DNA of 64,000 nucleotides from Escherichia phage nepoznato, in the sequence record NC_052658.1; one strand, 5' to 3'. Made by a program: the position numbers and the translations under genes. The first letter of the stretch is position 1, and every line of letters begins with the position of its first letter. This document shows positions 25,844-42,245 of the stretch, piece after piece. The notes under the pieces were generated by a model. The model saw only the letters and a list, made by a program, of their open reading frames with translations, did no database searches and was not told where the DNA came from.

Positions 25844-26574
25844 CTGCTCATGTAAAATCTGCCTAAACGGGGGAACTCTCAACAGAGACAATCCCGTGCT
25901 AAACGTAACAGAACTCCCAACACAGAAGAAGGGGGTACTGATATGAGAAAACAAATTCGTGATTTTGAAGGGTATGAAATTGACGAGCTTGGAAATGTTT
26001 ATTGTACCAGGTATAAGGATGAAAGAATCCTTCGCTCGTGGGAAGAAATAAACACAGGATACCAACTTGTCAGAATACGTAAAAACAAGAAAACTGTTTG
26101 CTTTCGGGTGCACAGACTTGTAGCTGAAGCGTTTTTACCCAATCCAGACAATTTACCTTATGTGAAGCATAAAGGTGACAATAGGAAAGACAACAGTGTA
26201 TACAATCTTGAGTGGGGATCTTGTCCAGACAACACGCAAGAGGGTTACGATAATAACTGTTATGCTTTCTACACAAGGTGTCACAGTGTAAAAGCTACTC
26301 ATAAGGCTACTGGTGAAGTTTTTTACTTTAAAAGTCTGAGATGTTGTGCTGACGCTTTAGGGTTGGACAGAAAAAGAATATCTGCAATCTTAAAACAAGG
26401 AGCACCAAATAATTATGATTATGAGTTCTGTTACGAAATGCCTAACGACTAGCTGTGATGAATGTAGCAGCGTAGGGTGTAAGCCTATGACACCCCAAAT
26501 GGTAGACATGCTTTAAGCATGAAGATATAGTCTGATCTGCATGGTGACATGCAGCAGCACGTAATGGTGCGGGA
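25844..26574 (+). mobile_element. Intervening element splitting nrdD, carrying a homing endonuclease gene; probable group I intron (splice sites not determined)
   Basis: Endonuclease ORF sits between the two nrdD halves. Confidence 0.5.
25943..26452 (+). CDS. HNH homing endonuclease
   Basis: YEIDELGNVY, VHRLVAEAF, KHKGDNRKDNSVYNLEW, C-terminal DNA-binding module. Confidence 0.8.
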   Translation: MRKQIRDFEGYEIDELGNVYCTRYKDERILRSWEEINTGYQLVRIRKNKKTVCFRVHRLVAEAFLPNPDNLPYVKHKGDNRKDNSVYNLEWGSCPDNTQEGYDNNCYAFYTRCHSVKATHKATGEVFYFKSLRCCADALGLDRKRISAILKQGAPNNYDYEFCYEMPND

Positions 26575-27546
26575 GTGGCCTTGCGAGCCACTTTGAACAT
26601 AATGTGTAGAAGTTTCTTGTCATACTATGCAACAGAGCAAGGAGAAAAATATGATGGACGATTCAACCTTGGAGTAGTTTCTATCAACTTGCCTCTGATT
26701 GCTGCGGAAGCGAGAAGTAAAGGAGAATCTTTCACCGATCTTCTTAATAAACATATGGAGATAGCCTACGATGCTCACATGCTACGTGTAAACCGTATCA
26801 GACATACCAAAGCATCTGAAAACCCTATTCTTTTCATGGAAGGGGCTTTAGCGCGTTTAAATGCCAATGATGAAATTGGTGTTTTGTTTGAAGGTGGTTA
26901 TGCTTCTATTAGTATTGGTTATGTAGGTCTTGCCGAAGCTTTGGAAATCCTTTATCCAGAAGAAAAAGATAAAAAGGAACTTGGTAAAAACATTCTGCAA
27001 CATATGAAAGATGTGTGTGCTGTGTTTAAAGAGCGATCTAAGCTGGCATTTAGTCTCTATGGAACTCCAGCAGAATCTTTGTGCTATAAGTTTGCAACAG
27101 CTTTAAATGAAAAATACCCAGGTTTGGTAGAAAGAGACTATCTTACTAACTCTTTTCATCAACCTGTATGGTTGGTAACAAATCCTTTTGAAAAATGGGA
27201 TTATGAAGCAGGTTTTGCACAGATTAGTAATGGTGGTAACATAAGTTATGTCGAAACACCAAACTTAAAGAATAACTTAGAAGCTTTGGAGACTTTAGTA
27301 GACTACGCTTATGAACATATTCACTATTTTGGTATTAATCAGCCCGTGGATCAATGCTTTAAGTGTGGTTTTCATGGAGAATTTAAGGCAACGGCTAAAG
27401 GGTTTGAGTGTCCTGATTGTGGCAACCATGAAGAAGAAACTATTTCTGTAGTTAGACGTGTATCAGGGTATCTTTCTGCTCCTAATTCACGGCCTTATAA
27501 CAAAGGTAAAATGCAGGAAGTTTTGCAAAGGGAGAAACATCTTTGA
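26575..27546 (+). CDS. nrdD: Anaerobic ribonucleoside-triphosphate reductase, C-terminal portion (true exon start uncertain)
   Basis: CxxC...CxxC zinc site and glycyl-radical motif RVSGYL. Confidence 0.75.
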   Translation: MALRATLNIMCRSFLSYYATEQGEKYDGRFNLGVVSINLPLIAAEARSKGESFTDLLNKHMEIAYDAHMLRVNRIRHTKASENPILFMEGALARLNANDEIGVLFEGGYASISIGYVGLAEALEILYPEEKDKKELGKNILQHMKDVCAVFKERSKLAFSLYGTPAESLCYKFATALNEKYPGLVERDYLTNSFHQPVWLVTNPFEKWDYEAGFAQISNGGNISYVETPNLKNNLEALETLVDYAYEHIHYFGINQPVDQCFKCGFHGEFKATAKGFECPDCGNHEEETISVVRRVSGYLSAPNSRPYNKGKMQEVLQREKHL

Positions 27547-28233: not shown

Positions 28234-28839
28234 ATGCAACATAGTGTAGTAGTCAACATGCCGAATAGTGGGGATAAATCTTTTGGTGTCCCTGCTAAAA
28301 AAGTGTGGAAAGCCCATTTTCATCTTACTTTATCTAACGTTAGTTCTGAAGAGTTGATGAAAGCAGCTAAGATTATTGGTGCCAAATGCACAACAATTGA
28401 TTTACATCGGGATACAAAGTCTCAACGTGATCGTATGTTAACAAAGTATCAAAGCGATCTCGACACTACTTTAATGTTGCAGTGTGTAGAAAAACTTGAG
28501 AATGCAGGTTTCAATGTTGTTCGTTACAAACTGGAACGAATGTTTAAACATGTTGCCTGTGTTCTTTTCATGGATCTAAGTAAAGAAAATTATGGAGAAG
28601 TTCACATTAAGACTTCAGCAAGTGATCCCGAAGTAGAAACAAACTTCTTCCGTATTTCTTCTAATGCTGAAGAAATTGATTACCGATTTTATAATGCTCG
28701 CTTATATTCCGCAGAAGATAAGTTGCGTTTCAATGAAGCGTATGATATGCTCTTGAACAGTGGGATACAGATAAAAGGCTACCACATAGAACAAGTGGTA
28801 GTGGACAGTAATCTTAACTTAGACGCATGGTGGGCTTAA
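28234..28839 (+). CDS. Hypothetical protein (201 aa); single H-x-T-x motif (HLTL), possible 2H-phosphoesterase-like
   Basis: Weak motif only; gene context. Confidence 0.3.
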   Translation: MQHSVVVNMPNSGDKSFGVPAKKVWKAHFHLTLSNVSSEELMKAAKIIGAKCTTIDLHRDTKSQRDRMLTKYQSDLDTTLMLQCVEKLENAGFNVVRYKLERMFKHVACVLFMDLSKENYGEVHIKTSASDPEVETNFFRISSNAEEIDYRFYNARLYSAEDKLRFNEAYDMLLNSGIQIKGYHIEQVVVDSNLNLDAWWA

Positions 28840-28840
28840 T

Positions 28841-29497
28841 ATGACTATTAAACATATCTCTTTTGATGTATGGAACACACTGATCACAGCAAACTCCAAT
28901 TACGCAGACATGCGAGCCTGGACTATCGCAAAATATGGAGATATTACGGAAGTGGAAGCAAGAGCAGCTTATAAGAAGATCAAAAAGGAACTGGATAATG
29001 CAGCACTTCAAGGCAAAGCCGAGTGTGCAGCATACGCCTGGGAAAGACTTGGTTCTGAACTTGGGATAACACCTTGGAAGTCTGCAAAGCTTCGTTTCGA
29101 GTGTGAACAGTGGTTCCTTAAGTTTCCACCACACGTAGCCGTGGATCTGCCGATGTACTTGCTGTATCTTTCGGGACGTTATGATTTGAGTATTAAGAGC
29201 AATACCAACTTTATATCAGGGGATATCCTGCGTCGTGCTTGTAAGTTTGATAGTTGGAATTGTTTTGAGTTCACCCATTTCTCGGATGAAGCTTTACTTT
29301 GTAAACCAGATCCGCGATTCTTTGCTCGCACGCTCACATATTCTCCGATCCCTCTGTTAGGGCACGAAGTATTGCACGTAGGCGATAGTGAAGAATATGA
29401 TGGAAAATGTGTTGACTTAGGATTTAACTTCTGTCATATTAAGAACCCTAACGACTTACTAGAGAAACTTAAAAGAGGAGAAATTGTAAATGCGTAA
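28841..29497 (+). CDS. HAD-superfamily hydrolase-like protein
   Basis: N-terminal FDVWNTL resembles HAD motif I variant. Confidence 0.4.
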   Translation: MTIKHISFDVWNTLITANSNYADMRAWTIAKYGDITEVEARAAYKKIKKELDNAALQGKAECAAYAWERLGSELGITPWKSAKLRFECEQWFLKFPPHVAVDLPMYLLYLSGRYDLSIKSNTNFISGDILRRACKFDSWNCFEFTHFSDEALLCKPDPRFFARTLTYSPIPLLGHEVLHVGDSEEYDGKCVDLGFNFCHIKNPNDLLEKLKRGEIVNA

Positions 29498-30317
29498 TCA
29501 AACTCAAATTTTTGCAAATAAATTTGATGACCTGGAAACTGCTACTTTTGATATCCAAGATTATTCAAAATTGAAATTTGGTAGTAACCAAGCCGCGCGT
29601 CGTATGGGTAAAGAATTGGCACTTCAGTTTTTTGCTCAAGTGGCAATGAAACATATTGGGGAACAATTTGTTATCATTCCTTCTCCTTACAACCATGTGC
29701 ATAATGCTGCAACAATGATGACAGATCATTTTATTAATTACTTTAACATGTTGCAATCACAATATAATCAAGGTCGTTCAGCAGAACTGGACATTATTCA
29801 TCGTAAAGTTAGCTATATCAACGATTATGGTTTCTTGGATAAAGCTAGTCGTAAGAAACTTATTGATGGGGATACATTCTACTGCAACAAAGAATTCTGG
29901 GGTGATAAGAAGCTTGTATTCATTGATGATGTAAATATCACTGGAACGCATGAAGACAAACTGATTGAGATTCTTGATGAAAATCAAGTTAAAAATGATG
30001 TTTACTTCCTGTATTTTGCAAAATATGAAGGTAATCAAGCAGATACCGAAGCTAAACTGAATTTTAACTACATTAATACACCAGAAGCGTTTGTTAAAAT
30101 GATTAATGAAGAACGTGATGCACAGTGTCTTGTTCGTCCTATTAAATATCTTATGGGCCAAAATCATGAAGACTTCAAAATCATTCTTAGCCAATTGCCA
30201 CACTACTATGTAGAGCAACTTTTCTTCGGCTGTTTAGCTGAAGGCTACAATCGAATTGCAAAGTATACTGAAAACTTTGAATTCTTGGATCGTTACACAA
30301 AACAACACATTCTGTAA
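29490..30317 (+). CDS. Type I phosphoribosyltransferase (PRTase) fold protein
   Basis: PRPP-binding motif LVFIDDVNITGT. Confidence 0.6.
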   Translation: MRNQTQIFANKFDDLETATFDIQDYSKLKFGSNQAARRMGKELALQFFAQVAMKHIGEQFVIIPSPYNHVHNAATMMTDHFINYFNMLQSQYNQGRSAELDIIHRKVSYINDYGFLDKASRKKLIDGDTFYCNKEFWGDKKLVFIDDVNITGTHEDKLIEILDENQVKNDVYFLYFAKYEGNQADTEAKLNFNYINTPEAFVKMINEERDAQCLVRPIKYLMGQNHEDFKIILSQLPHYYVEQLFFGCLAEGYNRIAKYTENFEFLDRYTKQHIL

Positions 30318-30331
30318 TAAGGAGCTAAAAA

Positions 30332-30805
30332 ATGCTTAAAATGAAAACAGGTAATCTTATTGATGCCGCTAAAGCAGGTGAAGTAACTGTTATTGCTCAT
30401 TGTTGCAATTGTATGTGTAATATGGGGGCAGGAATTGCTCCGCAAATTAAACGAGCATTCCCTTATGCATATGCGGCGGATTTAGACACAATGGCTGGTG
30501 ATCAGAGTAAGTTAGGTTCTTTTAGTTTAGGGGTGCCAGACGAACAATCAGACCCTTTGGTATATAATCTATACGGGCAATACCGTTACGGATATAATGC
30601 TAAAGGTCGTCAGTTGGACTATGATGCCCTATACGATGCACTAATAGCTATGGCTAATGATTTGCTTCTCCGTGACCAAAAATGTAAGATCGGTTTACCT
30701 ATGATTGGAGCGGGACATGCCGGAGGTAATTGGGCTATCATCCAAGTGATGATTGAAGAAACTTTAGTAAAAACAGGTCACGATGTGACTATTTATAAAC
30801 TTTAA
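30332..30805 (+). CDS. Macro domain protein (ADP-ribose binding/hydrolase family)
   Basis: Gly-rich blocks IAHCCNCMCNMGAGIA and LPMIGAGHAGG. Confidence 0.55.
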   Translation: MLKMKTGNLIDAAKAGEVTVIAHCCNCMCNMGAGIAPQIKRAFPYAYAADLDTMAGDQSKLGSFSLGVPDEQSDPLVYNLYGQYRYGYNAKGRQLDYDALYDALIAMANDLLLRDQKCKIGLPMIGAGHAGGNWAIIQVMIEETLVKTGHDVTIYKL

Positions 30806-30817
30806 GAGGAGATTAGT

Positions 30818-31039
30818 ATGGGTGTTTTTGCAGGTATTGTTGCAGTGGTAAGCTTTTTTGTTATTGCTTTTATGCTTAGTTTGATTCCAGCTTGGTTACT
30901 GTTGCTGGCTTACAACTATGTTGCTGAAGTTATGGGTCATGCAGATATCACTGTCCCAGTAACCTTCTGGACCGTGGTTTGTGTTTCGTTTATTCTGGCT
31001 GTATTACGAGGAATCTTTTCCTCTCATTCAACAAAATAA
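30818..31039 (+). CDS. Small membrane protein (73 aa)
   Basis: Two hydrophobic helices. Confidence 0.55.
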   Translation: MGVFAGIVAVVSFFVIAFMLSLIPAWLLLLAYNYVAEVMGHADITVPVTFWTVVCVSFILAVLRGIFSSHSTK

Positions 31040-31100
31040 GTGTTGACATAGTTCTTAAAAAGAGTAAGATATATCACATGAAGCGGGGAATAGTTCCCCG
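31038..31100 (+). promoter_or_regulatory. Early-type promoter (TTGACA) plus conserved leader TATCACATGAAG and hairpin CGGGGAA-TAG-TTCCCCG, plus-strand copy
   Basis: Same architecture as the leftward early promoters. Confidence 0.55.
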
Positions 31101-31118
31101 CAAAGAGAGGAGAAAAGA

Positions 31119-32093
31119 ATGCAACTCGGTTTCCCAATTATTGATGTAGTTGTTTTAGTTGGTATTTTGGCATTGTCTATTGGTATCGATTTCTTTGGTC
31201 ATAAAGAGAATAAAGAAATTGGAATTAAATCTGCTTTGCTTTGGTCTATTTTTTGGATTGCTTTAGCTTTAGGATATTACGCATTCATTTGGGTAGAACA
31301 TGGTAAAGAGTTTGCCGCGCTTTTCCTAAGTGGCTATGTGTTGGAAAAGAGTCTTTCTGTAGATAACCTGATGGTGTTCATGGCAATTTTTGCAAGCTTT
31401 GGAATTAAGAGCACACATCTCCAACATAAGATTTTACTTTGGGGGATTGCAGGAGCCATTGTCTTCCGAGGTATTTTTGTTGCAGCAGGCACCGCTTTGT
31501 TTAACCTTCATTGGTCGGTACAAGTGTTGTTCGGTTTGATTGTAGCTTGGTCTGCCGTAGCTATCATCAAAGGTGGTGACGAAGAAGAGGATATTGATTA
31601 CTCTAAGCATTGGGCTGTTCGTTTAGTAGGTAAAGTTCTGCCTGTGCACAATGCACTGGATGGTGAAAAGTTCATTACCATTAAGAATGGTATTAAATAT
31701 GCAACTCCTGCTCTTCTTTGTGTGTTTGTTATTGAGCTTACAGATATTGTCTTCTCTTTTGATTCAGTTCCGGCTGTGATCGGTGTGACACAAGAACCTC
31801 TGCTGGTTTATTCTGCAATGCTGATGGCTGTTCTTGGTTTACGTGCGCTTTTCTTTGTGTTAAGTGTAGCTGTGAAATATCTGGTTCACTTAGAGAAAGC
31901 TGTTGCTGTGGTTCTGGTGTTTGTTGGTGTTAAACTTATGTATCACCCGTTCGGTGAAACACTTCATGCCAAGTGGTCATTCCTCCCGCATGATATTTCC
32001 CCTAACGTAAGTCTGATGATTGTTCTAGGCACATTAGCTCTTGGTGTTATTGCAAGCTTTATCTTCCCTGAAAAAGAAGAAGCTGCTGTTTAA
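31119..32093 (+). CDS. terC: TerC-family integral membrane protein
   Basis: EKSLSVDNLMVF and ELTDIVFSFDSVPA; multiple TM helices. Confidence 0.75.
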   Translation: MQLGFPIIDVVVLVGILALSIGIDFFGHKENKEIGIKSALLWSIFWIALALGYYAFIWVEHGKEFAALFLSGYVLEKSLSVDNLMVFMAIFASFGIKSTHLQHKILLWGIAGAIVFRGIFVAAGTALFNLHWSVQVLFGLIVAWSAVAIIKGGDEEEDIDYSKHWAVRLVGKVLPVHNALDGEKFITIKNGIKYATPALLCVFVIELTDIVFSFDSVPAVIGVTQEPLLVYSAMLMAVLGLRALFFVLSVAVKYLVHLEKAVAVVLVFVGVKLMYHPFGETLHAKWSFLPHDISPNVSLMIVLGTLALGVIASFIFPEKEEAAV

Positions 32094-32100
32094 TAGATGA

Positions 32101-32125
32101 GCCTCCTTCGGGAGGCTATTTTATA
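32101..32125 (+). terminator. Rho-independent terminator AGCCTCC-TTCG-GGAGGCT + T-run
   Basis: Direct reading. Confidence 0.7.
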
Positions 32126-32135
32126 GGAGAGACTT

Positions 32136-32486
32136 ATGAATAATTTTGATGAAATTCAAGAACTTGTTTGGGATTTATCTGGTGATGTGGATTACATTTC
32201 AGATTATCTTTCAAAAGTTTACCCTGGGGTAAGCGTTATGATTGTGACCAAAGATCCGATTAATTTGCCTCCTAATGTGGTAGCTTGTTGTGGAAGTGGT
32301 TCAGGAGAAGTAGAGCCTGTATCTCGTTGGGAATTAACTAAAGCTGTTTCAAAACGAAACGGTGAAGTTTTGAATATTGATATTGAACAAATATGGACTT
32401 CTCCAGCAGCCAAATGGAATGATCCGAATGGTTGGGATTTGTTCTTCTGGGATAATGAAACTGATGATGAGGTATTTTTAAAATGA
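32136..32486 (+). CDS. Hypothetical protein (116 aa)
   Basis: ORF. Confidence 0.55.
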   Translation: MNNFDEIQELVWDLSGDVDYISDYLSKVYPGVSVMIVTKDPINLPPNVVACCGSGSGEVEPVSRWELTKAVSKRNGEVLNIDIEQIWTSPAAKWNDPNGWDLFFWDNETDDEVFLK

Positions 32487-32728
32487 AATACTTGTTGGTT
32501 GTGTTTGAAAATATCTGTTTTGCAATAGGGTTGTTTGTTGTAATTTTTGTATTGACAAGCGTAATCAACGGCAGTAAAGTGAGTTTATACCGAGATGGAG
32601 AGCAAATTTATTGCTTCTCTGGAGATTTCAAACACAGATGTATTAATAGTCAAAATGAGGAAAGCAAATATGAAAAAACTAGCCCTGATTTTAATTGGTT
32701 GTATCTTTTTAACAGCTTGCGAGGATGA
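32483..32728 (+). CDS. Small membrane protein (81 aa); overlaps next gene by about 58 nt
   Basis: Hydrophobic N-terminus. Confidence 0.4.
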   Translation: MKYLLVVFENICFAIGLFVVIFVLTSVINGSKVSLYRDGEQIYCFSGDFKHRCINSQNEESKYEKTSPDFNWLYLFNSLRG

Positions 32729-33107
32729 AACAAATCCTGCACAATACCAACAACCTCCTCAACAATACGCCCAACAAGGATCTGATGGAGATACAACTAT
32801 TATCAACAATGGTGGCGGTTCTAGTAGTAGCGGTGTTGGTGAGTTTGCTACAGGTATGTTGTTAGGGCATATGATGAGCGGTGGTAGTAATCGTAGTGGC
32901 GGGGATTATAACGATAACAGAACAATTATTAATAAACATTATAACACACCTAAACCGAAGACTAATTTTTATGGTAAGCCTAAACAAGAGACAAAAACTT
33001 ATGAAAAGCCGAGACAAACTTTTAAAACAAATAGTAGCTATACAACTCGTAAATCTTACAATAGCCCTTTAAGTAAAAAGAGTTCATCTCGTAGCAAGCG
33101 ACGTTAA
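32670..33107 (+). CDS. Lipoprotein with Gly/Ser-rich and Lys-rich tracts (about 145 aa)
   Basis: Signal peptide plus lipobox LTAC. Confidence 0.6.
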   Translation: MKKLALILIGCIFLTACEDETNPAQYQQPPQQYAQQGSDGDTTIINNGGGSSSSGVGEFATGMLLGHMMSGGSNRSGGDYNDNRTIINKHYNTPKPKTNFYGKPKQETKTYEKPRQTFKTNSSYTTRKSYNSPLSKKSSSRSKRR

Positions 33108-33122
33108 TAAGGAGAAAAAACA

Positions 33123-33566
33123 ATGACAATTTCTATCCGTACTTCCATTACAGGTGTTAAAAGTTTGCCTAATGCTTTGCAAATTACACGCGCTTTGAGG
33201 GATACGTTCTCCGCTGTGGATGAGCATAAGATGCTTGATAATCTCTCAAATTGGCCTTATTTTCATTATTTTAAAAATGAAGACGACGAGTTTATAGATG
33301 CTGTTTCTTATGGTTATGATTTCGGTAAGGAGGTTTCTCCTGAAGAATTTGTAGCTATGGTGTTCCCAAACGGTTTGCCTACTCGCAGTAAACGTAAAAA
33401 AGGACCAAAAAACAAGAAACGTGCTACTAACAAAGCTACCATTTTCTTTACTGATGGCACACAATATACGATTAAAGATTTTGAAGAGGTATCTTATACA
33501 GCAGGTGGGAATCTTTCTTTCTACACCATCAAAAAAACAAAACCCTACGTTCAGCCATGTTTCTAA
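33123..33566 (+). CDS. Hypothetical protein (147 aa)
   Basis: RBS AAGGAGAAAA. Confidence 0.55.
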   Translation: MTISIRTSITGVKSLPNALQITRALRDTFSAVDEHKMLDNLSNWPYFHYFKNEDDEFIDAVSYGYDFGKEVSPEEFVAMVFPNGLPTRSKRKKGPKNKKRATNKATIFFTDGTQYTIKDFEEVSYTAGGNLSFYTIKKTKPYVQPCF

Positions 33567-33720
33567 CATGATTGAAATGTTAGTAGAAGATATTGAAAGC
33601 GTGGCTGTGTTAGGTATGCATAAAAGCTTTTTAATTACAAATATTTCAGATTTCAGTGCACGTTTATCTGGCCCTGATTTTGAAGCCACGACCACGCATT
33701 TCACTTTTAAGGTGTAAGTT

Positions 33721-34311
33721 ATGCATACCGAGAGAGACTTGCAACTCTTGTGGTGGGAAGTGATGCAGGAAATAAAAGAAGATTTTCCTGTTTACTACAA
33801 CATGTTACGTGAAGCAGGATATAAAGCTTGCGTTAGAAACAAAGTGAATAACTCTTTTGGTTGGTGCAATTACCGAGATAAGATTGTTGTTGTAAATTGG
33901 CACTTGCATAAGAACTCCACAAGAGATATGATCGTGGATACAATGAAGCACGAAATTGCTCACGCTATTGATGGTTGTATGGGTAAGTTTAGTAGGCATG
34001 GTGCTCATTGGCAAAAACTGGCAGCAGAATTAGGGGCTAATCCTAAAGCCACTTCCAAAGAGCCGTTGAACCACGAATATAAATATGTTCTTGTTCTGGT
34101 AGATAGGTTTGCGACAAGATGTGTTAGAGGTTATAATCGTAAACCTAATCGCATGTACCCAGGTAAGCAACCTAACATGTGGTTGAAATCAGATAAAGAA
34201 GGAACTGAAGGAAAATTATGGTTGTATAAATGGGATGATTGGGTTAAAGTAGCTAAAGAGTACGGTGTTTCACCATATATAAGAGATGCAGAAGAGGAGA
34301 ATGAAGAATGA
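33721..34311 (+). CDS. SprT-like zinc metallopeptidase domain protein
   Basis: HEIAH (HExxH) in SprT-like context. Confidence 0.55.
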   Translation: MHTERDLQLLWWEVMQEIKEDFPVYYNMLREAGYKACVRNKVNNSFGWCNYRDKIVVVNWHLHKNSTRDMIVDTMKHEIAHAIDGCMGKFSRHGAHWQKLAAELGANPKATSKEPLNHEYKYVLVLVDRFATRCVRGYNRKPNRMYPGKQPNMWLKSDKEGTEGKLWLYKWDDWVKVAKEYGVSPYIRDAEEENEE

Positions 34312-35420
34312 CAAGTCCATTTTTAAAAGCAGCTACTGGTGGTCAGAAGAAGTCTGAAATGAGTGTATTCGCTGCAACAACAGATGCAAGTAAATCTGTA
34401 TTCGCTCCAAGTGTGTTAGATGCCAGTCCTGTTTATGCACCAGCAGCACCGCAAGAAGTTCCAGTTTTGCCTGCTATGACCCGACAAGAGATCGAAGAGA
34501 TTGGGGCAGAGGCAGGAACAACCTTGCGTTCCTTGAATGCCGAGGTATTAAAACATCAACGTAGTAATCAAGGCGATCAGATGAGTGAACGACTCACAGC
34601 TTTGATTAAACAGGCAAAACAACTTGATCCAAATTCTATTAAACAAAGCAAGGGTATTACTAAACTCATTAAAAAAGTTATGGGTATGAAAGAAGACCTG
34701 TTCGGGGAGTTTGATAATGTTAATAACCGTATTGAAGAGTTGGTAAAGAACCTTCAAATGGATATTCGCAAAGAAGAAGATTCCTTGGTATATCTTGAAA
34801 AGCTACATCAAGCTATTGGACAATATGCTGCAAGTTTGAACCGAGATATGCAGCTTCTAACAGCAACCTATGAAAAAGAAGAACAAGCTTTGGCTGCTCT
34901 TCCAGAAGATGCAGTAGAACAGCGACAAGTGATCCGAGATACTTTGGATCTTCTGGAGATTCGTATTGCAGATTTAAAAGCATTGCGCCTACTGTGTGTC
35001 CAAATGGGACCGCGTGTACAAGGTATGCAAAAAGTTTCTGCAAGCTTAATGCGATCTGCGCGTAACATAGTAAATAATGTTATTCCTGCTTACTCTGCTA
35101 ACTTCTCAATGTATATCGAGAGTTTACGTCAAATGAAAGCAGCAGAGACGCAGAATAACGTTCTTGATGAATTTAACCTGGCAATTAAACTGGGTAGCGA
35201 TCTTGCCACACAGAATCAGATCGAAGCAGCAGCACTGGCTAACCGTCAAGTGTTGGATATTGAAACTCTGCGTCACGATCAGGAAAACTTGGTTAAGATG
35301 TTGGAAGAAACTAACCGCATCAATACGGAAGCCCGTGCTGCTCGTGTTGATTATATTAATGAAGTTCAATCTCTGGAAGACGGGATGGTAGCTGCTGTGA
35401 AACGAGGGCTTGGTAAATGA
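34308..35420 (+). CDS. telA: TelA-like (toxic anion resistance family) protein
   Basis: N-terminal GDQMSERLTALIKQAKQLDPN resembles the TelA/YaaN region; coiled-coil rich; Ter context. Confidence 0.55.
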   Translation: MTSPFLKAATGGQKKSEMSVFAATTDASKSVFAPSVLDASPVYAPAAPQEVPVLPAMTRQEIEEIGAEAGTTLRSLNAEVLKHQRSNQGDQMSERLTALIKQAKQLDPNSIKQSKGITKLIKKVMGMKEDLFGEFDNVNNRIEELVKNLQMDIRKEEDSLVYLEKLHQAIGQYAASLNRDMQLLTATYEKEEQALAALPEDAVEQRQVIRDTLDLLEIRIADLKALRLLCVQMGPRVQGMQKVSASLMRSARNIVNNVIPAYSANFSMYIESLRQMKAAETQNNVLDEFNLAIKLGSDLATQNQIEAAALANRQVLDIETLRHDQENLVKMLEETNRINTEARAARVDYINEVQSLEDGMVAAVKRGLGK

Positions 35421-35614
35421 GAATCCGTATCTATATAATTGATGAAGACATTGGTGTCCGTTATGATGACGAAAAACGATTCGCACCGATGGGAGGCATA
35501 TATCCCCCAAGTGTTCTAGCAGTTTGTCGTGATTGTTATATTTATGAAGGTTGTCGTAACTTCCGTAAATTCCAACTACTTGCAGATATTGACTTCAACG
35601 AGGAGGAGGAGTAA
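35417..35614 (+). CDS. Hypothetical protein (65 aa)
   Basis: ORF. Confidence 0.5.
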   Translation: MRIRIYIIDEDIGVRYDDEKRFAPMGGIYPPSVLAVCRDCYIYEGCRNFRKFQLLADIDFNEEEE

Positions 35615-35787
35615 TGAAAATATTACGAGTGAATATTGAAACTGCTTGGTGTGGATGCAATGAGGTTGTGGATATCGAAATTGAAGATGATATGTCTCAA
35701 GAGGATATAGAAGATCTTGCACACGAAACCTTTCAGGACTATTGTAATTACGGGTTTCATATTTTAGAGGAGGAAGAAGATGTTTAA
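35614..35787 (+). CDS. Hypothetical acidic small protein, about 57 aa, not in the ORF track
   Basis: TAATG overlap; RBS GAGGAGG. Confidence 0.45.
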   Translation: MKILRVNIETAWCGCNEVVDIEIEDDMSQEDIEDLAHETFQDYCNYGFHILEEEEDV

Positions 35788-35983
35788 CTACGATAACGAT
35801 CCTAATATTATCCAGTTAACCCGACAAGAACTGATCACAATCATTGAAGATGCTTTTATTGATGGTTGGAATACACAAGATAATGATTGGGGTGGACCCG
35901 AAGCTTTTCTGGAACATCATAAAACGTATGGAGACTTTTGTGAAACCACTGTAGCTCTTGATAATCTGAAGGAGGGTTTGTAA
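35780..35983 (+). CDS. Hypothetical protein (67 aa)
   Basis: RBS GAGGAGGAAG. Confidence 0.55.
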   Translation: MFNYDNDPNIIQLTRQELITIIEDAFIDGWNTQDNDWGGPEAFLEHHKTYGDFCETTVALDNLKEGL

Positions 35984-36543
35984 TGGGTTGTTTTAGTTTT
36001 TTGTGTAAGGAATCTGGAAAAGCTGCCCTTTCTACTTCTTTCGACGGATCACCTTGTTATCTCTTTCTTTTGAAGGACGGTGTTGTTATTGAAGAGATGT
36101 ATGGCAACTATGATAGTTATGGTTGTGTTTTCTCTGGAAAGGAGGATGAAAATGGCGTTCGTGAACGGTTCGAATGGGCTATGGATTGGGGTAAGGTTTG
36201 TGATTTAATGCATTCCTCAAATCCAAGGGACGGTATTGCTATGGTGCTGGAAGAGTACTTTACAGGTGAAATCCCTACAGAACAATCTGACGGAGATCCT
36301 AATCAAGGTTGGGGTGATGGTGAAGAAGATCCAGATTGTTTTTTCAGCACAGAAAAGAATAAGTTTAAACGTGTTGACAACCCTTATCACAAAGTGCATA
36401 ATACTCTCATTGAAACAGAAGATGACAAGATGGAAATTGAAGAAGATCCTCTTGTAACACTTCCTATAAGTGAGTTACAAAAGATCACTAAGGAAGCTTA
36501 CGATTTGGGCTTCAAAATTGGTAGAGGAGGTATGCGTGTTTAG
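35983..36543 (+). CDS. Hypothetical protein (186 aa), acidic
   Basis: ORF. Confidence 0.55.
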   Translation: MGCFSFLCKESGKAALSTSFDGSPCYLFLLKDGVVIEEMYGNYDSYGCVFSGKEDENGVRERFEWAMDWGKVCDLMHSSNPRDGIAMVLEEYFTGEIPTEQSDGDPNQGWGDGEEDPDCFFSTEKNKFKRVDNPYHKVHNTLIETEDDKMEIEEDPLVTLPISELQKITKEAYDLGFKIGRGGMRV

Positions 36544-36814
36544 ATTCAATATTCAAGAAGAAAAGTGTCAGGATTTACCTATTGCTTTCGAAGATCTTGG
36601 CATAGGGGCCACATTCATGTATTATGATGCCTATGAAGACGCAGGGTTGGATACATACCGTAACTTGGTGTTCATTAAAAATTCCACAAACAGTGCGATC
36701 TGTATTAATGGATCACTAGCACAACGAGGCTATACTCATTGCATCCCGCCAGATACAAATATGGTGGAAGTAGATTTAGAAGTTACCAACATTACACTTA
36801 AGAAGGAGAAATAA
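36536..36814 (+). CDS. Small protein, paralog of 37836-38105; probable GTG start
   Basis: RBS AGGAGG 5 nt before GTG; shared F-I-E...DL-G-TF-Y...E-GLD...VT-ITLK pattern. Confidence 0.45.
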   Translation: MFRFNIQEEKCQDLPIAFEDLGIGATFMYYDAYEDAGLDTYRNLVFIKNSTNSAICINGSLAQRGYTHCIPPDTNMVEVDLEVTNITLKKEK

Positions 36815-36815
36815 T

Positions 36816-37610
36816 ATGTCCGAGAAAATCAGCCTGAAAAAACGTCAAGAAAACCTTGCTTTCTCTCTGAAAAAGAATAAGAACCTGAATGAAGGTAAGA
36901 TTGTTCTTCGTGTAGCATGTGCTCTAGATATTTCTGGTAGTATGCATGGTCTATATTCTAGTGGGGTAGTGAGTGATTTTGTAGGTAAACTGCTTCCTTT
37001 TGGTATGCTGTTCGACGATAATCAACAAATTGATATGTGGGCCTTCAATACGAGTTCCCAAGAGCTTACTCCAGCAACAGCAGATGTTTACGATGACTAT
37101 GTTGGTAAATGTATGCGTAATGTTCGTATCGGAGGTGGAACAAATTACGCCCCTGTAATGGCGGATATCTACGATGAGTATTTTGGCACTGTTACTAAAT
37201 ATATTACCACTAAACAAGTGGTACAAGAGGAGGCTCCAAAGAAAGGCTTCTTTAATCGTCTGCTTGGTAAAACTGAAACAGTGTCTGTAGAGCGTGAAAA
37301 AGTTGTAGCTGTATCTGAACCAGGTGCTGACGTTACCCCTGGTGTTGTATTCTTCCAGACGGATGGTGAGAATGGTGATCCTAGTGCTGTTCGTCGTCTT
37401 ATCGAAGAGAATAAGAATAAACCTATTTATTGGTTCATGGTTGGCGTTGGTAATGAGAAGTTCGGCTTCCTGAAAGAACTGGCAAATGCTTATGATAATG
37501 TTGGTTTTATTGGCATTAAAGATTTAGACTTGACAGATTCAGAGCTTTATGACAAACTCTTATCTGAAGAGTTCGGAGAGTGGGTTGTTAAAGTAGGTGC
37601 TAAAAAATGA
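36816..37610 (+). CDS. von Willebrand factor A domain protein (TerY-like)
   Basis: MIDAS motifs DISGSM, GGTNYA, TDGENGD; N-terminal ISLKK as in TerD. Confidence 0.65.
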   Translation: MSEKISLKKRQENLAFSLKKNKNLNEGKIVLRVACALDISGSMHGLYSSGVVSDFVGKLLPFGMLFDDNQQIDMWAFNTSSQELTPATADVYDDYVGKCMRNVRIGGGTNYAPVMADIYDEYFGTVTKYITTKQVVQEEAPKKGFFNRLLGKTETVSVEREKVVAVSEPGADVTPGVVFFQTDGENGDPSAVRRLIEENKNKPIYWFMVGVGNEKFGFLKELANAYDNVGFIGIKDLDLTDSELYDKLLSEEFGEWVVKVGAKK

Positions 37611-37855
37611 TCGACGAGCTTGCCTCTCAAGTCATAGAAAATTATTGGCGCGAGAGAGAAGCTTTCATTATGCGCAGTCTCAAAGAGTATTTCATTGGGA
37701 CTGTGCGAATGGAAGATATTGTAAGTAGAGTAGAGATTCATGTATGGCCCGATTATGAAGAATGGGTTGACAAAGAAAATGAAAATGCTATAATTCTTCG
37801 TATATACAAACCGGAGATAACATTAGGAGGAAGAAGTGTTAAACTTCGAAATTGA
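37607..37855 (+). CDS. Hypothetical protein (82 aa)
   Basis: ORF. Confidence 0.5.
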   Translation: MIDELASQVIENYWREREAFIMRSLKEYFIGTVRMEDIVSRVEIHVWPDYEEWVDKENENAIILRIYKPEITLGGRSVKLRN

Positions 37856-38105
37856 TGAGCAAAAAGTAAATAAACGATGCCTTACCATTAAAGATTTGGA
37901 TGTAGGAGATACTTTCGTCTATGAAAATGCATTTGACGAAAATGGTTTAGACCTTAGTGAAATCATTGTTTATTTAAAAGTAGATGATGGGGAAAATGAT
38001 TGTTCTGCTGTAGAACTAAACCATCATGCACAATTAGTATCAATCCAAAACACATCTAAGCTTTTGGAAGTAGAATTGACTGTAACTGGTATTACACTTA
38101 AATAA
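37836..38105 (+). CDS. Small protein, paralog of 36536-36814; GTG start
   Basis: RBS AGGAGGAAG; paralogy. Confidence 0.5.
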   Translation: MLNFEIDEQKVNKRCLTIKDLDVGDTFVYENAFDENGLDLSEIIVYLKVDDGENDCSAVELNHHAQLVSIQNTSKLLEVELTVTGITLK

Positions 38106-38120
38106 TAGAGGAGACAAAAG

Positions 38121-38723
38121 ATGACTGATAAAATTTCCCTGAAAAAAGGCTCTAGCGAAAAAATTTCCCTGAAGAAAGTTGCTCCGGCTCTGAAAGAACT
38201 GCGCCTGGAATTCTCTTGGAAATCTGATTCTAAACTGGATCTGGATGTAAGTGCACTGGTTTGTCGTCACAATGCCGCTGGCAATCCTGAAATGCTGTCT
38301 GCACGTCACCTGGTTTGCTATGCTAACAAGTTTGATCCTGAACGTTCTACCTTCGCTGGTGACGATGTTCGTGATGGAACTGGCAGCATGGAGCAGATTG
38401 ATATTACTCTGGCTAAAATCTCTCCTGATGCACAAGAGATTGCCTTTGTTCTGACCATTGATGATGATACAGGTCTGAAACGTTTTGGTCATGCTTCTGA
38501 AGGTATGCTTAAAATCTTTGACTCCGAGCGCAATGTGGAAATTCTGGATTTTGACTTCCTGGCTCCTGAAGTAGCTGGCAACACAATCTGCCACGTGGCT
38601 TCCTTGGTTCGTGAAGATGGGGAATGGAAGCTGAAAGCATATGGTGTAGGTAAAGCTGGTCTGGATATTTGTGATGTGGTCATGGCCTTCGGTGGTAAAA
38701 AAGAATGGTATGAATGTCCATAA
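38121..38723 (+). CDS. terD: TerD-family protein
   Basis: Repeated KISLKK N-terminus; GEWKLKAYGVGKAGLD as in E. coli TerD GEWKFRAVGQGYAGGL. Confidence 0.85.
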   Translation: MTDKISLKKGSSEKISLKKVAPALKELRLEFSWKSDSKLDLDVSALVCRHNAAGNPEMLSARHLVCYANKFDPERSTFAGDDVRDGTGSMEQIDITLAKISPDAQEIAFVLTIDDDTGLKRFGHASEGMLKIFDSERNVEILDFDFLAPEVAGNTICHVASLVREDGEWKLKAYGVGKAGLDICDVVMAFGGKKEWYECP

Positions 38724-38741
38724 TAATTAACAAATGATTTT

Positions 38742-38761
38742 GAGGGGGAGAAATCCCCCTC
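38742..38761 (+). terminator. Hairpin GAGGGGGA-GAAA-TCCCCCTC after terD
   Basis: Direct reading; T-run weak. Confidence 0.45.
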
Positions 38762-38790
38762 TTGCAATAAAGCCTCTATCGTGTTATACT
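38762..38790 (+). promoter_or_regulatory. Promoter TTGCAA-N17-TATACT with TG extension
   Basis: Direct reading. Confidence 0.5.
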
Positions 38791-38822: not shown

Positions 38823-39344
38823 TTGCTGATAAAAAACTTTGTAACAGTTGCGTTACTATCCTTAACTGCTTTTACATTTACACCTGTTGTGGCGAAAGCC
38901 GAAGCTGCAAACGTAAAAACCGCTAAAGTAGTTCACAAATGTACAAAGCAATATAATGATAAAATTCTATTAGCTTGTGCAATTTACGCAGAAGGTCGCG
39001 GTCTGGGTAAAAAAGGAATGAATGCCGTTGGGAATGTGGTAATCAACAGAAGAAATGATACCTACTTCCCTAACACAGTCAGAGGAGTCTTGTTCCAGAA
39101 AGGACAATTCTCATATGCGAAAACTTTTAACGTAACAGAGAAAGATAAGTGGCAGGAAGCAAAAGCAATAGCGGAGCGTTTACTTTATCTAGAGAAACAT
39201 TTTCCTGAATTGCGGTCTGTTTTAGATGTTACTAAAGGTGCTCTATACTTCAAGAAACGGAATATAAAGACACACTGGGAACGTGATATGCGTCTTGTTT
39301 ATCGAGATAAAGTGCATGGTTTCTATCTACCAAAGGGGAGTTAA
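38823..39344 (+). CDS. Secreted SleB-like (Hydrolase_2) cell wall hydrolase; TTG start
   Basis: Signal peptide; block CAIYAEGRG...VGNVVINRR...FPNTV...VLFQKGQF. Confidence 0.65.
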   Translation: MLIKNFVTVALLSLTAFTFTPVVAKAEAANVKTAKVVHKCTKQYNDKILLACAIYAEGRGLGKKGMNAVGNVVINRRNDTYFPNTVRGVLFQKGQFSYAKTFNVTEKDKWQEAKAIAERLLYLEKHFPELRSVLDVTKGALYFKKRNIKTHWERDMRLVYRDKVHGFYLPKGS

Positions 39345-40045: not shown

Positions 40046-40609
40046 ATGATTTATTATATTACTCCCTATCTGACAGGAAATATCGGCAAGGCTATCAATG
40101 AAGCCATTGCCGTTCTTCCAGATGATAGTTGGGTGTGTTTAAGAGATACCGATACAATGTTCCTCCTACCTGATCAACCATCTATGCTTGAAGAGCTTGT
40201 TATGTCAAACCCGCCTTTTGATGTAATAGGTGCAACTTGTAACAGGTTAGGCAGTGGTTATCAACTTTTCTCTAACCAAATTAACGATGATCCAGATATT
40301 CTAAACCATATAGAATATGCTAAGATTGCAAGAGAATATCATAAAGTGAGTGTTGAAGAAGTTCCTTTCGGAACACCTCTAGCAGGTTTCTTTTTGCTTT
40401 TTAGAAAATCCTTGTGGAATGAAATTCCTTTCGAAGAAAAATCTATCCAATTCGACTTAATTTTCTCTCGCACTTTACATGAAAAAGGAAAGAGGTTAGG
40501 ATTGATGCGGGGAATGTATCTATTTCACATTTACAGATTAGGTCAAACAAATCCTCAACGGTCTATACATCATTTATTACACTGTCACGATCACAGTAAA
40601 ACTATTTAG
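40046..40609 (+). CDS. Putative nucleotide-sugar transferase (GT-A-like)
   Basis: DxD-like LRDTDTMF; weak. Confidence 0.35.
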   Translation: MIYYITPYLTGNIGKAINEAIAVLPDDSWVCLRDTDTMFLLPDQPSMLEELVMSNPPFDVIGATCNRLGSGYQLFSNQINDDPDILNHIEYAKIAREYHKVSVEEVPFGTPLAGFFLLFRKSLWNEIPFEEKSIQFDLIFSRTLHEKGKRLGLMRGMYLFHIYRLGQTNPQRSIHHLLHCHDHSKTI

Positions 40610-40617
40610 GAGAGAAA

Positions 40618-41301
40618 ATGGAAAATATTAAAATCGGAGTGGGTGTTATCACTGTAGGTGTCCGTCCACTTAAAGACTACCTTGTAACAGATCCACGTGC
40701 AGATTTTCGAGTATTCAACGATCCAGACCGTAAAGGTGTAGCTTATGCCAGGAATGAACTTATGCACCAGTTTTATGAAGAAGGTTATGATTATTGGTTT
40801 ATTTTTGACGACGATTGTTACCCAGTCATGGAAGGATGGGAAACATACTTTGTAGATCAAGCTGTTTCTGGAGGATGGGATTTCTTTGGTATGCCGGAGT
40901 ACTTCAAAGATAAAGTTGTTGGAAGCAAAGGAGAAGTTATTCTCTGGGAACTTGCAATGTGTCAATTTGCAATGTATTCTCGTGCCGTTGTTGAAAAGAT
41001 GGGTTATTTCCGCCCTTACACTCACGGTTATGGTTTTGAAGATGCCGAATGGGGACACCGTTTGAAAGCTGCTGGTTTGAATCATGGTATTCAGGCAACA
41101 CCTTGTCCACTTCGTATCATGGCTTATATCCACCCAGACGATGTTTTTGGAAACAATCCTATGCCTTTTGCTAATCTGACAAAAGAAGAGAAAGAAGCTG
41201 CTATCGAGATTAACTGGGAAGAATATAAAGCATCTTTAGAGGATATTAAAAATGGGAAAATCCGAATTTCCTATGAGGAGGCACTAGCACATGTCAAATA
41301 A
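40618..41301 (+). CDS. Family 2-like glycosyltransferase
   Basis: N-terminal Rossmann-like segment and DDD motif. Confidence 0.5.
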   Translation: MENIKIGVGVITVGVRPLKDYLVTDPRADFRVFNDPDRKGVAYARNELMHQFYEEGYDYWFIFDDDCYPVMEGWETYFVDQAVSGGWDFFGMPEYFKDKVVGSKGEVILWELAMCQFAMYSRAVVEKMGYFRPYTHGYGFEDAEWGHRLKAAGLNHGIQATPCPLRIMAYIHPDDVFGNNPMPFANLTKEEKEAAIEINWEEYKASLEDIKNGKIRISYEEALAHVK

Positions 41302-42238
41302 AAAATGGTCTAAACTAAAAATTGATGCAAAACCTCACAGCGGTTGTGACTATCATCGTATTGTTATGCCATTTAACAACAATAATATTCAACCTAAGAA
41401 AGATGTTGTTGTGTTTAACCGTATCCATTCTAAAGGTGCAGAATACGTTTTATCTTTGAAACGTCAAGGTGTTAAGATTGTTGTAGATTTAGATGATTTC
41501 TACCAACTTAATCCAGAACATTATTTAGCAAGTCTATACGAGTCAAACACTCATGCTATTGTAGCTATGGTTAAGCTTGCTGATGTGGTTATTGTGACTA
41601 CGGAATATTTGGCATATAAGATCCGTCACTTAAATAGGAATGTTGTTGTGATCCGAAATGCGCTTCCTTTTGATAGCGGACAATTTACTTTGTCAAATGA
41701 CCGTTCATCCGGTACCCCTATTGTATGGGCTGGAGGTGCTAGTCACGAACCCGATTTACGACTAGTCTCTAACACTTTTGATGATGAACTTCTTACTATT
41801 GCGGGGTATGAAGCTTCGCAGAGTATCACAGGGCAAGAGTGGATTAAAATCCGTAGAAATTTACCAAATGCCAAATATAAAGCTGCTGTAAAAGATTTAG
41901 ATAATTACATGAGTGTTTACGAAAGTCATGCTATTGCTATAGCTCCTTTGGTAGATAATGATTTTAATAATTGTAAAAGTAATCTCAAAATCCTTGAAGC
42001 TGGGGCAAAAGGTATTCCGATTGTTTGTTCTAAGGTATTACCTTATTTTAACCCTGTAGATGCTCGCGCTGTTGCTTACGCAGAGAATAAAGCTGAATGG
42101 CATTACGAAATTGTTAAGCTTCTTCGCAATCCGAACTATCGGGAAGATCGCGGCTTGTTCTTAGCGGAACATGTTCGAACACATTATAATCTGGCAGATG
42201 CAAACGAATTGCGACGCCAGGTTATTGAAAGCTTGTAG
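41291..42238 (+). CDS. GT-B-like glycosyltransferase, paralog A
   Basis: Paralogy with next gene; low-specificity fold guess. Confidence 0.4.
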   Translation: MSNKKWSKLKIDAKPHSGCDYHRIVMPFNNNNIQPKKDVVVFNRIHSKGAEYVLSLKRQGVKIVVDLDDFYQLNPEHYLASLYESNTHAIVAMVKLADVVIVTTEYLAYKIRHLNRNVVVIRNALPFDSGQFTLSNDRSSGTPIVWAGGASHEPDLRLVSNTFDDELLTIAGYEASQSITGQEWIKIRRNLPNAKYKAAVKDLDNYMSVYESHAIAIAPLVDNDFNNCKSNLKILEAGAKGIPIVCSKVLPYFNPVDARAVAYAENKAEWHYEIVKLLRNPNYREDRGLFLAEHVRTHYNLADANELRRQVIESL

Positions 42239-42245
42239 GTGAAGT

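Follow-up and report, generated by a model that had tools for sequence, protein, structure and literature searches.

The 64,000-nucleotide stretch of DNA analyzed here, referred to as the window, belongs to Escherichia phage nepoznato (NC_052658.1), a Phapecoctavirus that is ~98% identical to ZCKP1 and ESCO13. Between 31.0 and 38.8 kb it carries a dense series of open reading frames (ORFs), all on the plus strand, among which genes for TerC, TelA, vWA and TerD proteins follow a gene pair coding for an HAD-superfamily hydrolase and a phosphoribosyltransferase (PRTase) of the PRTase_3 family. The block is a phage-borne abbreviated Ter system, vertically inherited throughout the Stephanstirmvirinae (phAPEC8, phi92 and 05F01-like phages), and its HAD, PRTase_3, TerC/DUF475, TelA, vWA and TerD genes represent a recurrent cassette present in many unrelated lytic phages. 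With a probability of roughly 0.45, we favor a role in phage-phage or phage-host conflict, in which an early membrane-associated and metal-dependent Ter complex would be combined with a ligand provided by the HAD-PRTase pair. The Ter module in the window is real, and its interpretation is essentially that of the literature and already known. Since the genes are annotated in near-identical phages, and phage Ter systems as well as the superinfection-exclusion idea have been published (PMC7824862), little is added as a discovery.

Recurrence and membership of the cassette

The original prediction described a stress-response module consisting of TerC, SprT-like, TelA-like, vWA and TerD proteins. 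Searches with hidden Markov models (HMMs), named beforehand as the refuting test, supported every family call, with all five Pfam models scoring above their curated cut-offs (Table 1). The SprT-like protein reached 36.7 bits with PF10263 (cut-off 25.6) and carries HEIAH at residues 77-81, the motifs DISGS, GGT and TDG of a complete metal ion-dependent adhesion site (MIDAS) are present in the vWA protein, and the stretch GEWKLKAYGVGKAGLD quoted for TerD was found. The phosphoribosyltransferase/HAD module announced upstream was identified as PRTase_3 and an HAD-like hydrolase. Membership in the module held for TerC, TelA, vWA and TerD but not for the SprT-like protein, which is missing from phi92-type phages and from the cassettes outside the Stephanstirmvirinae. 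The label "stress response" is putative for the block.

Homologues were searched by tblastn against 50,697 phage records, yielding matches to the PRTase in 155, TerD in 144, TelA in 221 and vWA in 208 of them. Beyond the coliphage subfamily these included Caulobacter/Brevundimonas jumbo phages and phiPsa374-like Pseudomonas phages; RaK2/121Q-like jumbo phages matched TelA, and Rhizobium phages matched the PRTase and vWA. In addition, 25 PRTase_3 loci with 10-kb flanks were collected from public phage genomes, metagenome contigs and IMG/VR and scanned with iterated HMMs built from confirmed members. The HAD gene was located directly upstream of PRTase_3 in 25/25 loci. In seven of the 14 lineages outside the Stephanstirmvirinae, TerD, vWA and TerC/DUF475 genes were found on the same strand at a distance of at most 10 kb from the pair, which supports the predicted link between Ter genes and the PRTase/HAD module independently of the literature; TelA was detected in five of these seven Ter-linked lineages. 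Their gene order is shuffled, for example TelA-vWA-x-x-x-TerC/DUF475-x-HAD-PRTase-TerD, and in locus L011 the pair sits between TerC/DUF475 and TerD. CcrColossus carries a bare, tight TelA-vWA-DUF475-TerD operon, the proteins of which are 22-35% identical to their homologues in the window.

Unsupervised clustering of all ORFs in the loci revealed no non-Ter family joining the pair as often as TerD or vWA. A third constant companion of the pair was sought and not found beyond the Ter genes, an RNA ligase being present in four loci only. SprT, the Macro-domain protein, a protein of 186 amino acids (aa) and a 201-aa AbiEi-like protein were absent from every cassette outside the Stephanstirmvirinae; these four are lineage-specific neighbours and not parts of the cassette.

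Within the subfamily the block is highly conserved. Among the 60 near-full-length records, defined as those covering at least 80% of the block, the best 25 showed 97.9-98.6% nucleotide identity, and the best matches include ZCKP1, ESCO13, ESCO5, nieznany and a phAPEC8 variant. TerD and vWA proteins are 100% identical in near-identical Phapecoctavirus phages, where the GenBank labels read "integral membrane protein TerC", "TelA superfamily protein", "tellurium resistance protein (TerE)", "VWA domain-containing protein", "SprT-like family protein", "putative phosphoribosyltransferase" and "HAD-like". The same genes are present in sequenced Stephanstirmvirinae (phAPEC8, ESCO13, ZCKP1, phi92 and the BASEL phages JohannJBalmer and PaulScherrer), and essentially the sole difference between the window and its near-identical relatives is an extra A in a poly-A run, by which an unrelated ORF is frameshifted. 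This run (33531-33537) comprises seven A's compared to six in ESCO13 and lies in gene 33123-33717, a member of PHROG 27550 with 197 aa in relatives; the frameshift could represent a sequencing error, a pseudogene or slippage.

The layout of phi92 (Justusliebigvirus), the Ter genes of which were already flagged by RAST in 2015, matches that of the window. Ortholog comparison demonstrated that phi92 retains the HAD, PRTase and Macro genes, the 73-aa transmembrane protein, TerC, the 81-aa transmembrane protein, the lipoprotein, TelA, the 186-aa protein, one phrog_11278 protein, vWA and TerD, whereas SprT, the 201-aa protein and a number of small ORFs are missing from it. In the Klebsiella phage 05F01, SprT is retained, DUF475 replaces TerC and the Macro gene is located elsewhere. 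The block is not purely Ter, as approximately ten small ORFs without Ter homology are interspersed among the named Ter genes.

The ratio of nonsynonymous to synonymous substitution rates (dN/dS) in comparison to locus L017 and phi92 was 0.04-0.24 for HAD, PRTase, Macro, TerC, TelA, vWA and TerD, and 0.04-0.15 for the four Ter genes, with synonymous sites nearly saturated. The core genes of the cassette are under strong purifying selection. Amino acid identities to L017 are mosaic, with 93% for HAD, 79% for PRTase, 91% for Macro, 72% for TerC, 91% for TelA, 73% for vWA and 91% for TerD, and in L017 a TerC allele that is of the phi92 type, judged by its motifs, is set in a backbone resembling Phapecoctavirus. 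These identities suggest that individual units of the block are exchanged between genera by recombination.

Encoded proteins and the terC transcription unit

TerC contains nine hydrophobic segments according to hydropathy analysis and reached 320 bits with the NCBIfam model TIGR03718 of the TerC/Alx metal-homeostasis subfamily (cut-off 246). It is 48-50% identical to bacterial TerC/Alx proteins, and all 12 phage TerC sequences compared share the acidic motifs E..LS.DN and E..D..F..DS.P without change. A recent capture of terC from E. coli was considered and rejected, as blastn gave no match in 5,426 E. coli genomes.

The 80-nucleotide gap upstream of terC contains a sigma-70-like promoter, then a GC-rich hairpin of 8 bp and a strong Shine-Dalgarno site, and a terminator-like hairpin directly follows the stop codon, as is also the case for TerC in phi92 and for DUF475 in 05F01. 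This unit of promoter, hairpin, Shine-Dalgarno site, membrane protein gene and terminator is kept in six lineages, including phi92, three metagenomic relatives and 05F01 with its DUF475 gene. The hairpin stems covary among the relatives, the sequences differing while the pairing is kept at -13 to -16 kcal/mol. Scanning the whole window for the promoter-plus-hairpin design yielded 13 copies on the minus strand, in a region of many small genes at 1.7-8.8 kb, and the terC site as the only plus-strand copy with a strong hairpin; the core of the leader hairpin is repeated at 3033, 4080 and 8365 on the minus strand. Hence terC is an autonomous sigma-70-type unit of the same design as the small-gene promoter cluster. 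The early-type promoter and conserved leader hairpin predicted for terC were both present and conserved, while the early timing can be read solely from the type of promoter. No manganese riboswitch (yybP-ykoY) or other known RNA was detected upstream of terC in a search of 23-45 kb, in which the only known-RNA match was the group I intron in nrdD.

The minus-strand copies between 1700 and 8800 consist of TTGACA, a spacer of 16-17 nucleotides, TAnnnT, a (G)TATCACaTAG-like stretch and a GC hairpin of 6-9 bp with -11 to -18 kcal/mol, and each of the thirteen copies precedes a small gene. They presumably constitute an early-gene regulon with stabilizing 5′ hairpins.

Hydropathy analysis revealed no hydrophobic segments in TelA, vWA and TerD. 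TelA covers positions 13-327 of the 332-position profile with 115.6 bits (cut-off 30). The AlphaFold2 model showed very long helices at residues 131-197 and 203-367, with a predicted local distance difference test (pLDDT) score of 73 and a predicted template modelling (TM) score of 0.46, and searching the PDB with the TelA sequence gave no match. In the vWA protein the MIDAS residues D-x-S-G-S, T and D are invariant among 19 phage homologues, and its N-terminus repeats the TerD-like ISLKK...SLKK hairpin motif. It is of the TerF type; for a TerY-P defence triad of TerY vWA, PP2C phosphatase and Ser/Thr kinase, no kinase or PP2C match was obtained with Pfam or PADLOC among the ORFs neighbouring the vWA gene.

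TerD matches the solved structures 2kxt (E 1.5e-15) and 3ibz (E 2.9e-14). The full calcium-binding motif GDN(R/L)TGxGDGDDE together with DLDxSA was not found in the window protein. Its long motif, GDDVRDGT--GSME, is shortened by two residues and lacks the acidic GDDE pair, while DLDVSA is kept. Klebsiella TerD (2kxt) and several other phage TerDs, among them those of Caulobacter and metagenomic phages, in contrast retain GDNxTGxxxGDDE. The window protein fits a reduced or non-metal-binding paralogue.

The metal-related features of these proteins bear on an explanation without any conflict role, namely pure metal homeostasis. TerC would act as an exporter of Mn2+ or other divalent cations or as a metalation factor, with TerD, vWA and TelA buffering or sensing the metal, so that metal is tuned for phage enzymes or for proteins destined for export, for example the signal-bearing SleB-type lysin whose gene lies just downstream. 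Consistent with this idea, TerC scores above the metal-homeostasis cut-off and resembles bacterial TerC/Alx proteins, its transport motifs are invariant, the MIDAS is intact, terC is autonomous with a strong promoter and swappable for the related DUF475 membrane protein, and the adjacent lysin carries an N-terminal hydrophobic segment. Furthermore, two reports describe Mn2+ export and metalation of exported enzymes by proteins of the TerC family (PMC10550928, PMC10197570). Nevertheless, we regard the explanation as unlikely. It leaves unexplained the recurrent linkage to a pair using phosphoribosyl pyrophosphate (PRPP), the partial loss of the Ca2+ motif in TerD and the phage and colicin resistance conferred by bacterial ter loci (PMC7824862), and the lack of a manganese riboswitch or known RNA element before terC also argues against it.

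Turning to the enzyme pair, the PRPP loop DDVxITGTHE of the PRTase is invariant in 57 homologues. The AlphaFold2 model was obtained with a pLDDT of 93.4, and its core matches HGPRT, ComF and PyrR with E values down to 6e-7; structural TM scores were just 0.35-0.45 because of an extra C-terminal helical domain, which has no counterpart in the matched type I PRTases. A PDB sequence search with PRTase_3 gave no match. In the HAD protein, motif I reads FDVWNT and the Asp+2 acid/base residue is absent. The subfamily motif is (F/L)D(V/F/I/A)(W/Y)xT in 27/27 homologues (loci L001-L029), the residue two positions after the nucleophilic Asp always being aromatic (W, once Y), whereas motifs II (SN(T/S)), III (KP) and IV (GDxxxD) are intact. 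Motif I thereby differs from the DxDx(T/V) of HAD phosphatases, with Asp+2 as general acid/base, and resembles that of the 2-haloacid-dehalogenase type. Judged from these motifs the protein belongs to the HAD fold, while phosphatase chemistry is not assured.

Proposed role in conflict and its alternatives

In the conflict role that we favor, terC would be transcribed by the host RNA polymerase immediately after infection. TelA, vWA and TerD would then gather on the inner side of the membrane, at TerC or close to it, forming an assembly that depends on divalent metals (Mn2+/Ca2+/Mg2+) and may alter the infected cell with regard to its ions and envelope. The HAD-PRTase_3 pair would phosphoribosylate an acceptor from PRPP and process the product, so that a ribosylated ligand or signal is coupled to the complex. 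The most likely effect would be the exclusion of superinfecting phages and a blunting of pore-forming insults until programmed lysis, because bacterial ter loci show phage-inhibition and colicin-resistance phenotypes (summarized by Iyer et al. 2021, PMC7824862). A stricter version, which we consider speculative and unlikely to hold in full, is that a PRPP-derived ribosylated small molecule made by the pair with its non-classical HAD switches TerD-vWA-TelA on TerC, and that this six-gene machine closes the cell to competitors within minutes.

Iyer et al. (2021, PMC7824862) described phage Ter systems in which PRTase/HAD would synthesize a signal and TelA/vWA would form structures beneath the membrane, and proposed that these systems act against superinfecting phages; xenobiotic resistance during pseudolysogeny was mentioned as an additional possibility. 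A Klebsiella phage paper makes the same statement on phage Ter systems. Like the window, the systems of Iyer et al. comprise TerD, TerC, a TerF-type vWA, TelA, PRTase and HAD. The window differs from them in belonging to a 150-kb non-jumbo coliphage, in the approximately ten unrelated small ORFs between its Ter genes and in the separate early-type transcription unit of its TerC.

Comparison with the terZABCDEF island of the Enterobacter roggenkampii plasmid NZ_CP096189 demonstrated 48% identity between the TerC proteins and 28% between the phage vWA and the TerF C-terminus, while the best BLAST match of the phage TerD was TerZ (24%). A PRPP-using biosynthetic arm is present beside membrane and TerD genes in both the island and the phage. 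However, the island encodes five TerD-domain proteins (TerZ, A, D, E, F) compared to one in the phage, and its TerB, TerW, ATP-grasp, HpcH aldolase, StiP/PRTase_1, PRTase_2 and DUF4236 proteins are all absent from the phage, whereas TelA is present in the phage and not in the island. The original prediction had also placed the PRTase/HAD link in bacterial loci. Homologues of the phage HAD and PRTase_3 were sought in this canonical island and not found; its PRTases are of other families.

The Bacillus subtilis yceCDEFGH-type operon contains TerD paralogues, TerC (MeeF) and TelA (YceH). In gene content it shares the core of TerD, TerC and TelA with the phage, which adds vWA and the HAD-PRTase pair and has a single TerD; TerC proteins of this type function in Mn export and in the metalation of secreted enzymes (PMC10550928).

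The family names and the GenBank "tellurite resistance" labels would suggest that the cassette provides the host with tellurite or xenobiotic resistance as a moron-type benefit, and resistance to xenobiotics during pseudolysogeny was raised in the literature (PMC7824862). We consider this highly improbable. The phage has neither TerB nor the several TerD paralogues found in resistance operons, and conservation across a lytic subfamily at a dN/dS of ~0.1 points to a role in the infection cycle. The phage group is strictly lytic and provides no lysogenic carrier state in which a host could benefit.

Several observations weigh against the conflict role. The other seven of the 14 diverged lineages have no Ter gene in the 10-kb flanks of the pair (Ter-less pairs within 10 kb: L002, L013, L020-22, L025, L028 and L029). 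Since half of the diverged pairs are Ter-less and rhizobial copies are located among glycan-pathway genes, coupling of the pair to Ter genes is not obligatory. The phosphatase step is uncertain, as the HAD protein lacks Asp+2 in all 27 homologues. A Foldseek search of the TelA model against the PDB gave no match at E <= 0.001, and sub-threshold matches were generic helical bundles (BAR domains and ClyA-family components) with TM scores <= 0.4; with a moderate model and no significant structural neighbour, the role as a sub-membrane scaffold is without structural support. Half of the Ca2+ motif of TerD is lost, a state conserved in all Stephanstirmvirinae. TerB (PF05099), which is central in bacterial ter operons, had no match in the ORFs of 27.5-43.5 kb, and the early timing assigned to terC derives from its promoter type. 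Finally, the literature searched contained gene lists only and no experiment on any phage Ter gene; searches on PRTase_3/PF15610 or on ter operons as named anti-phage systems likewise returned nothing beyond gene lists.

The first of these points would be accommodated if two systems were present, a possibility that we judge somewhat unlikely. HAD-PRTase_3 would be a stand-alone (phospho)ribosyl-transfer device, acting from PRPP on a base, glycan, lipid or nucleic acid with subsequent processing of the 5′-phosphate and possibly cooperating with the glycosyltransferases encoded at 40046-43190, and the Ter quartet would be independent. A bacterial HAD-PRTase_3 pair of 40% identity is located on the Sinorhizobium plasmid NZ_CP120375 (9370-10840), surrounded by genes for a glycosyltransferase, a radical SAM enzyme, an epimerase, an SMR transporter, a GMC oxidoreductase and a UbiA prenyltransferase; by analogy, this neighbourhood recalls polyprenyl-phospho-pentofuranose or PRPP-based pentofuranose glycan pathways. 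PRTase_3 and TerD lie ~30 kb apart in the Brevundimonas phage Gurke, and PRTase_3 and vWA more than 80 kb apart in Rhizobium phages. Moreover, PRPP-dependent transfer followed by an HAD phosphatase is an established route to ribofuranosylated glycans, in which, as in the phage pair, transferase and HAD-fold enzyme are adjacent or fused (PMC11127046). The transferases of those systems differ in fold, though, belonging to the gPRT/UbiA type, whereas the phage enzyme is soluble and of type I, with purine PRTases, ComF and PyrR as its closest matches, and is accompanied by an HAD without Asp+2. Independence of the two parts is also difficult to reconcile with the embedding of the pair in a Ter cluster in seven independent lineages and with its preference for TerD and vWA over any other gene family. 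The conflict role and the explanations set beside it are not mutually exclusive.

Neighbouring genes and meaning of the cassette

The features of the cassette and its surroundings are compiled in Table 1.

Table 1. Genes and predicted elements of the Ter block and the adjoining enzyme pair, with positions in the window and the matches on which they are based.
Feature	Position	Strand	Basis and remarks
HAD-superfamily hydrolase, first gene of pair	28841-29497	+	PHROG 14393 "hydrolase", E 3e-117; weak NCBIfam HAD-IA matches
Type I phosphoribosyltransferase, PRTase_3, ComF-like	29490-30317	+	PF15610, E 2.3e-41, 142 bits (cut-off 28.7)
Macro-domain protein, TARG1/DarG/SCO6735 type	30332-30805	+	Pfam Macro, E 8e-5
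73-aa protein, two hydrophobic helices	30818-31039	+	Hydropathy; 60% identity in phi92
Sigma-70-like terC promoter	31043-31070	+	TTGACA-16-TAAGAT; conserved in phi92, 05F01, L015, L016, L017
GC-rich hairpin in 5′ leader	31083-31101	+	GCGGGGAA-TAG-TTCCCCGC; -14.6 kcal/mol
TerC/Alx-family integral membrane protein	31119-32093	+	PF03741, E 1.3e-40, 139 bits (cut-off 27.8)
Terminator-like hairpin directly after terC stop	32100-32117	+	AGCCTCC-TTCG-GGAGGCT, then ATTTTAT
81-aa single-pass membrane protein	32483-32728	+	Hydropathy; phi92 homologue 49% identity
Predicted lipoprotein, low-complexity Lys-rich tail	32670-33107	+	MKKLALILIGCIFLTAC lipobox; PHROG 21570
SprT-like zinc metallopeptidase, HEIAH	33721-34311	+	PF10263, E 4.2e-9
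TelA-family protein, soluble, all-helical	34308-35420	+	PF05816, E 3.4e-33
186-aa protein	35983-36543	+	314 homologues
Near-consensus promoter-like site before phrog_11278 a and vWA	36374-36402	+	TTGACA-17-CATAAT
phrog_11278 paralogue a, directly 5′ of vWA	36536-36814	+	PHROG 11278, E 5.9e-48
vWA-TerF-like protein, stand-alone, TerF C-terminal type	36816-37610	+	PF10138, E 1.6e-37, 130 bits (cut-off 29.4)
Perfect-consensus promoter-like site before phrog_11278 b and TerD	37767-37794	+	TTGACA-16-TATAAT, upstream TG, 12/12
phrog_11278 paralogue b, directly 5′ of TerD	37836-38105	+	PHROG 11278, E 2.6e-45
TerD-family protein	38121-38723	+	PF02342, E 3.2e-28, 98.9 bits (cut-off 25.3)
GC-rich hairpin at block end	38742-38761	+	GAGGGGGA-GAAA-TCCCCCTC; -17.2 kcal/mol; no T-run

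Among the smaller genes, the lipoprotein has homologues in phi92, where a signal peptide is annotated, and in 05F01, and phi92 carries a single phrog_11278 copy with 63% identity to paralogue a. SprT is present in 05F01-like loci (44% identity) and in L016 and L017, and absent from phi92. The N-terminal ~135 aa of the 186-aa protein form a very widespread phage domain (50-65% identity) without a Pfam model. The protein was considered as a hidden Ter component and rejected, as this domain occurs frequently in unrelated phages, marine ones among them, where it is found near replication genes and no Ter genes are present.

The Macro protein, located beside the HAD-PRTase pair in the Stephanstirmvirinae only, matched DarG models of NCBIfam (4.5e-9) and PADLOC (1.6e-10) as well as the structures 5e3b (1e-12) and 5m31, a DarG macrodomain (9e-7). 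Phage-encoded DarG-like antitoxin mimics directed against DarTG have been documented (PMC11481870, PMC11825919, PMC13309987). Given these published mimics and the DarG-class match, the Macro protein is probably an orphan antitoxin-like counter-defence gene product and not part of the Ter system. Directly upstream of the HAD gene, a 201-aa protein (28234-28839) is matched near full length by two PADLOC AbiEi models (E 5e-13); Pfam, NCBIfam and PDB searches gave no match. It occurs in Phapecoctavirus-like phages and not in phi92 and represents a candidate orphan antitoxin mimic. An H-x-T-like motif had raised the idea of a 2H phosphoesterase partner of Macro, which was discarded in view of the AbiEi matches and the absence of Pfam or PDB support.

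With two orphan antitoxin-like genes in the region and such mimics on record, the whole block might be a counter-defence island, in which the Ter proteins shield the membrane against host abortive-infection effectors that depolarize or perforate it. The early-type terC promoter would suit an action before host defences fire. On the other hand, the AbiEi-like gene is absent in phi92, the Macro, AbiEi-like and SprT genes are not linked to the Ter cassette outside the Stephanstirmvirinae, and no PADLOC model matched TerC, TelA, vWA or TerD, so that this explanation appears doubtful to us.

The gene directly 3′ of TerD (38823-39344) encodes a cell-wall hydrolase of the SleB type (PF07486, E 1.5e-17), the N-terminus of which contains a hydrophobic segment. 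This hydrolase is the annotated endolysin in phi92, and its adjacency to TerD is repeated in the diverged metagenomic cassette L026. Four successive glycosyltransferase-like genes follow the lysin gene (40046-43190), all of which are kept in phi92; two of them are paralogues with 38% identity (41291-42238 and 42246-43190), and one of the four showed a weak match to TET-associated glycosyltransferases. Upstream of the block, the gene nrdD for the anaerobic ribonucleotide reductase is interrupted exactly at position 263 of the Pfam NRDD profile, with the N-terminal part at 24962-25843, the C-terminal part at 26575-27546 and an HNH/NUMOD homing-endonuclease ORF between them (25943-26452). The group I intron match within nrdD (RF00028, 26315-26554, E 5e-7) is under the gathering score. 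A spliced nrdD is annotated in phi92, and the split gene is a known kind of feature.

To our knowledge, the way in which Ter/TelA loci protect bacteria from tellurite, colicins and phages has been an unsolved problem since the 1990s. Several refinements are added here: core genes are told apart from passengers, terC forms an autonomous early-type unit, the HAD motif is atypical, the metal site of TerD is degenerate, and the enzyme pair can be separated from the Ter quartet. The compact and conserved six-gene version of a lytic coliphage, a minimal set of one TerD, one vWA, one TelA, one TerC and one HAD-PRTase pair without TerB, is easier to approach by experiment than the bacterial islands with their 15-20 genes. 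As the close relatives JohannJBalmer and PaulScherrer belong to the tractable BASEL collection of E. coli K-12 phages, a testable model phage is at hand. If a ribosylated ligand indeed switches the Ter proteins, this would be the first system in which the Ter mechanism, a 30-year-old question, could be solved both genetically and biochemically.

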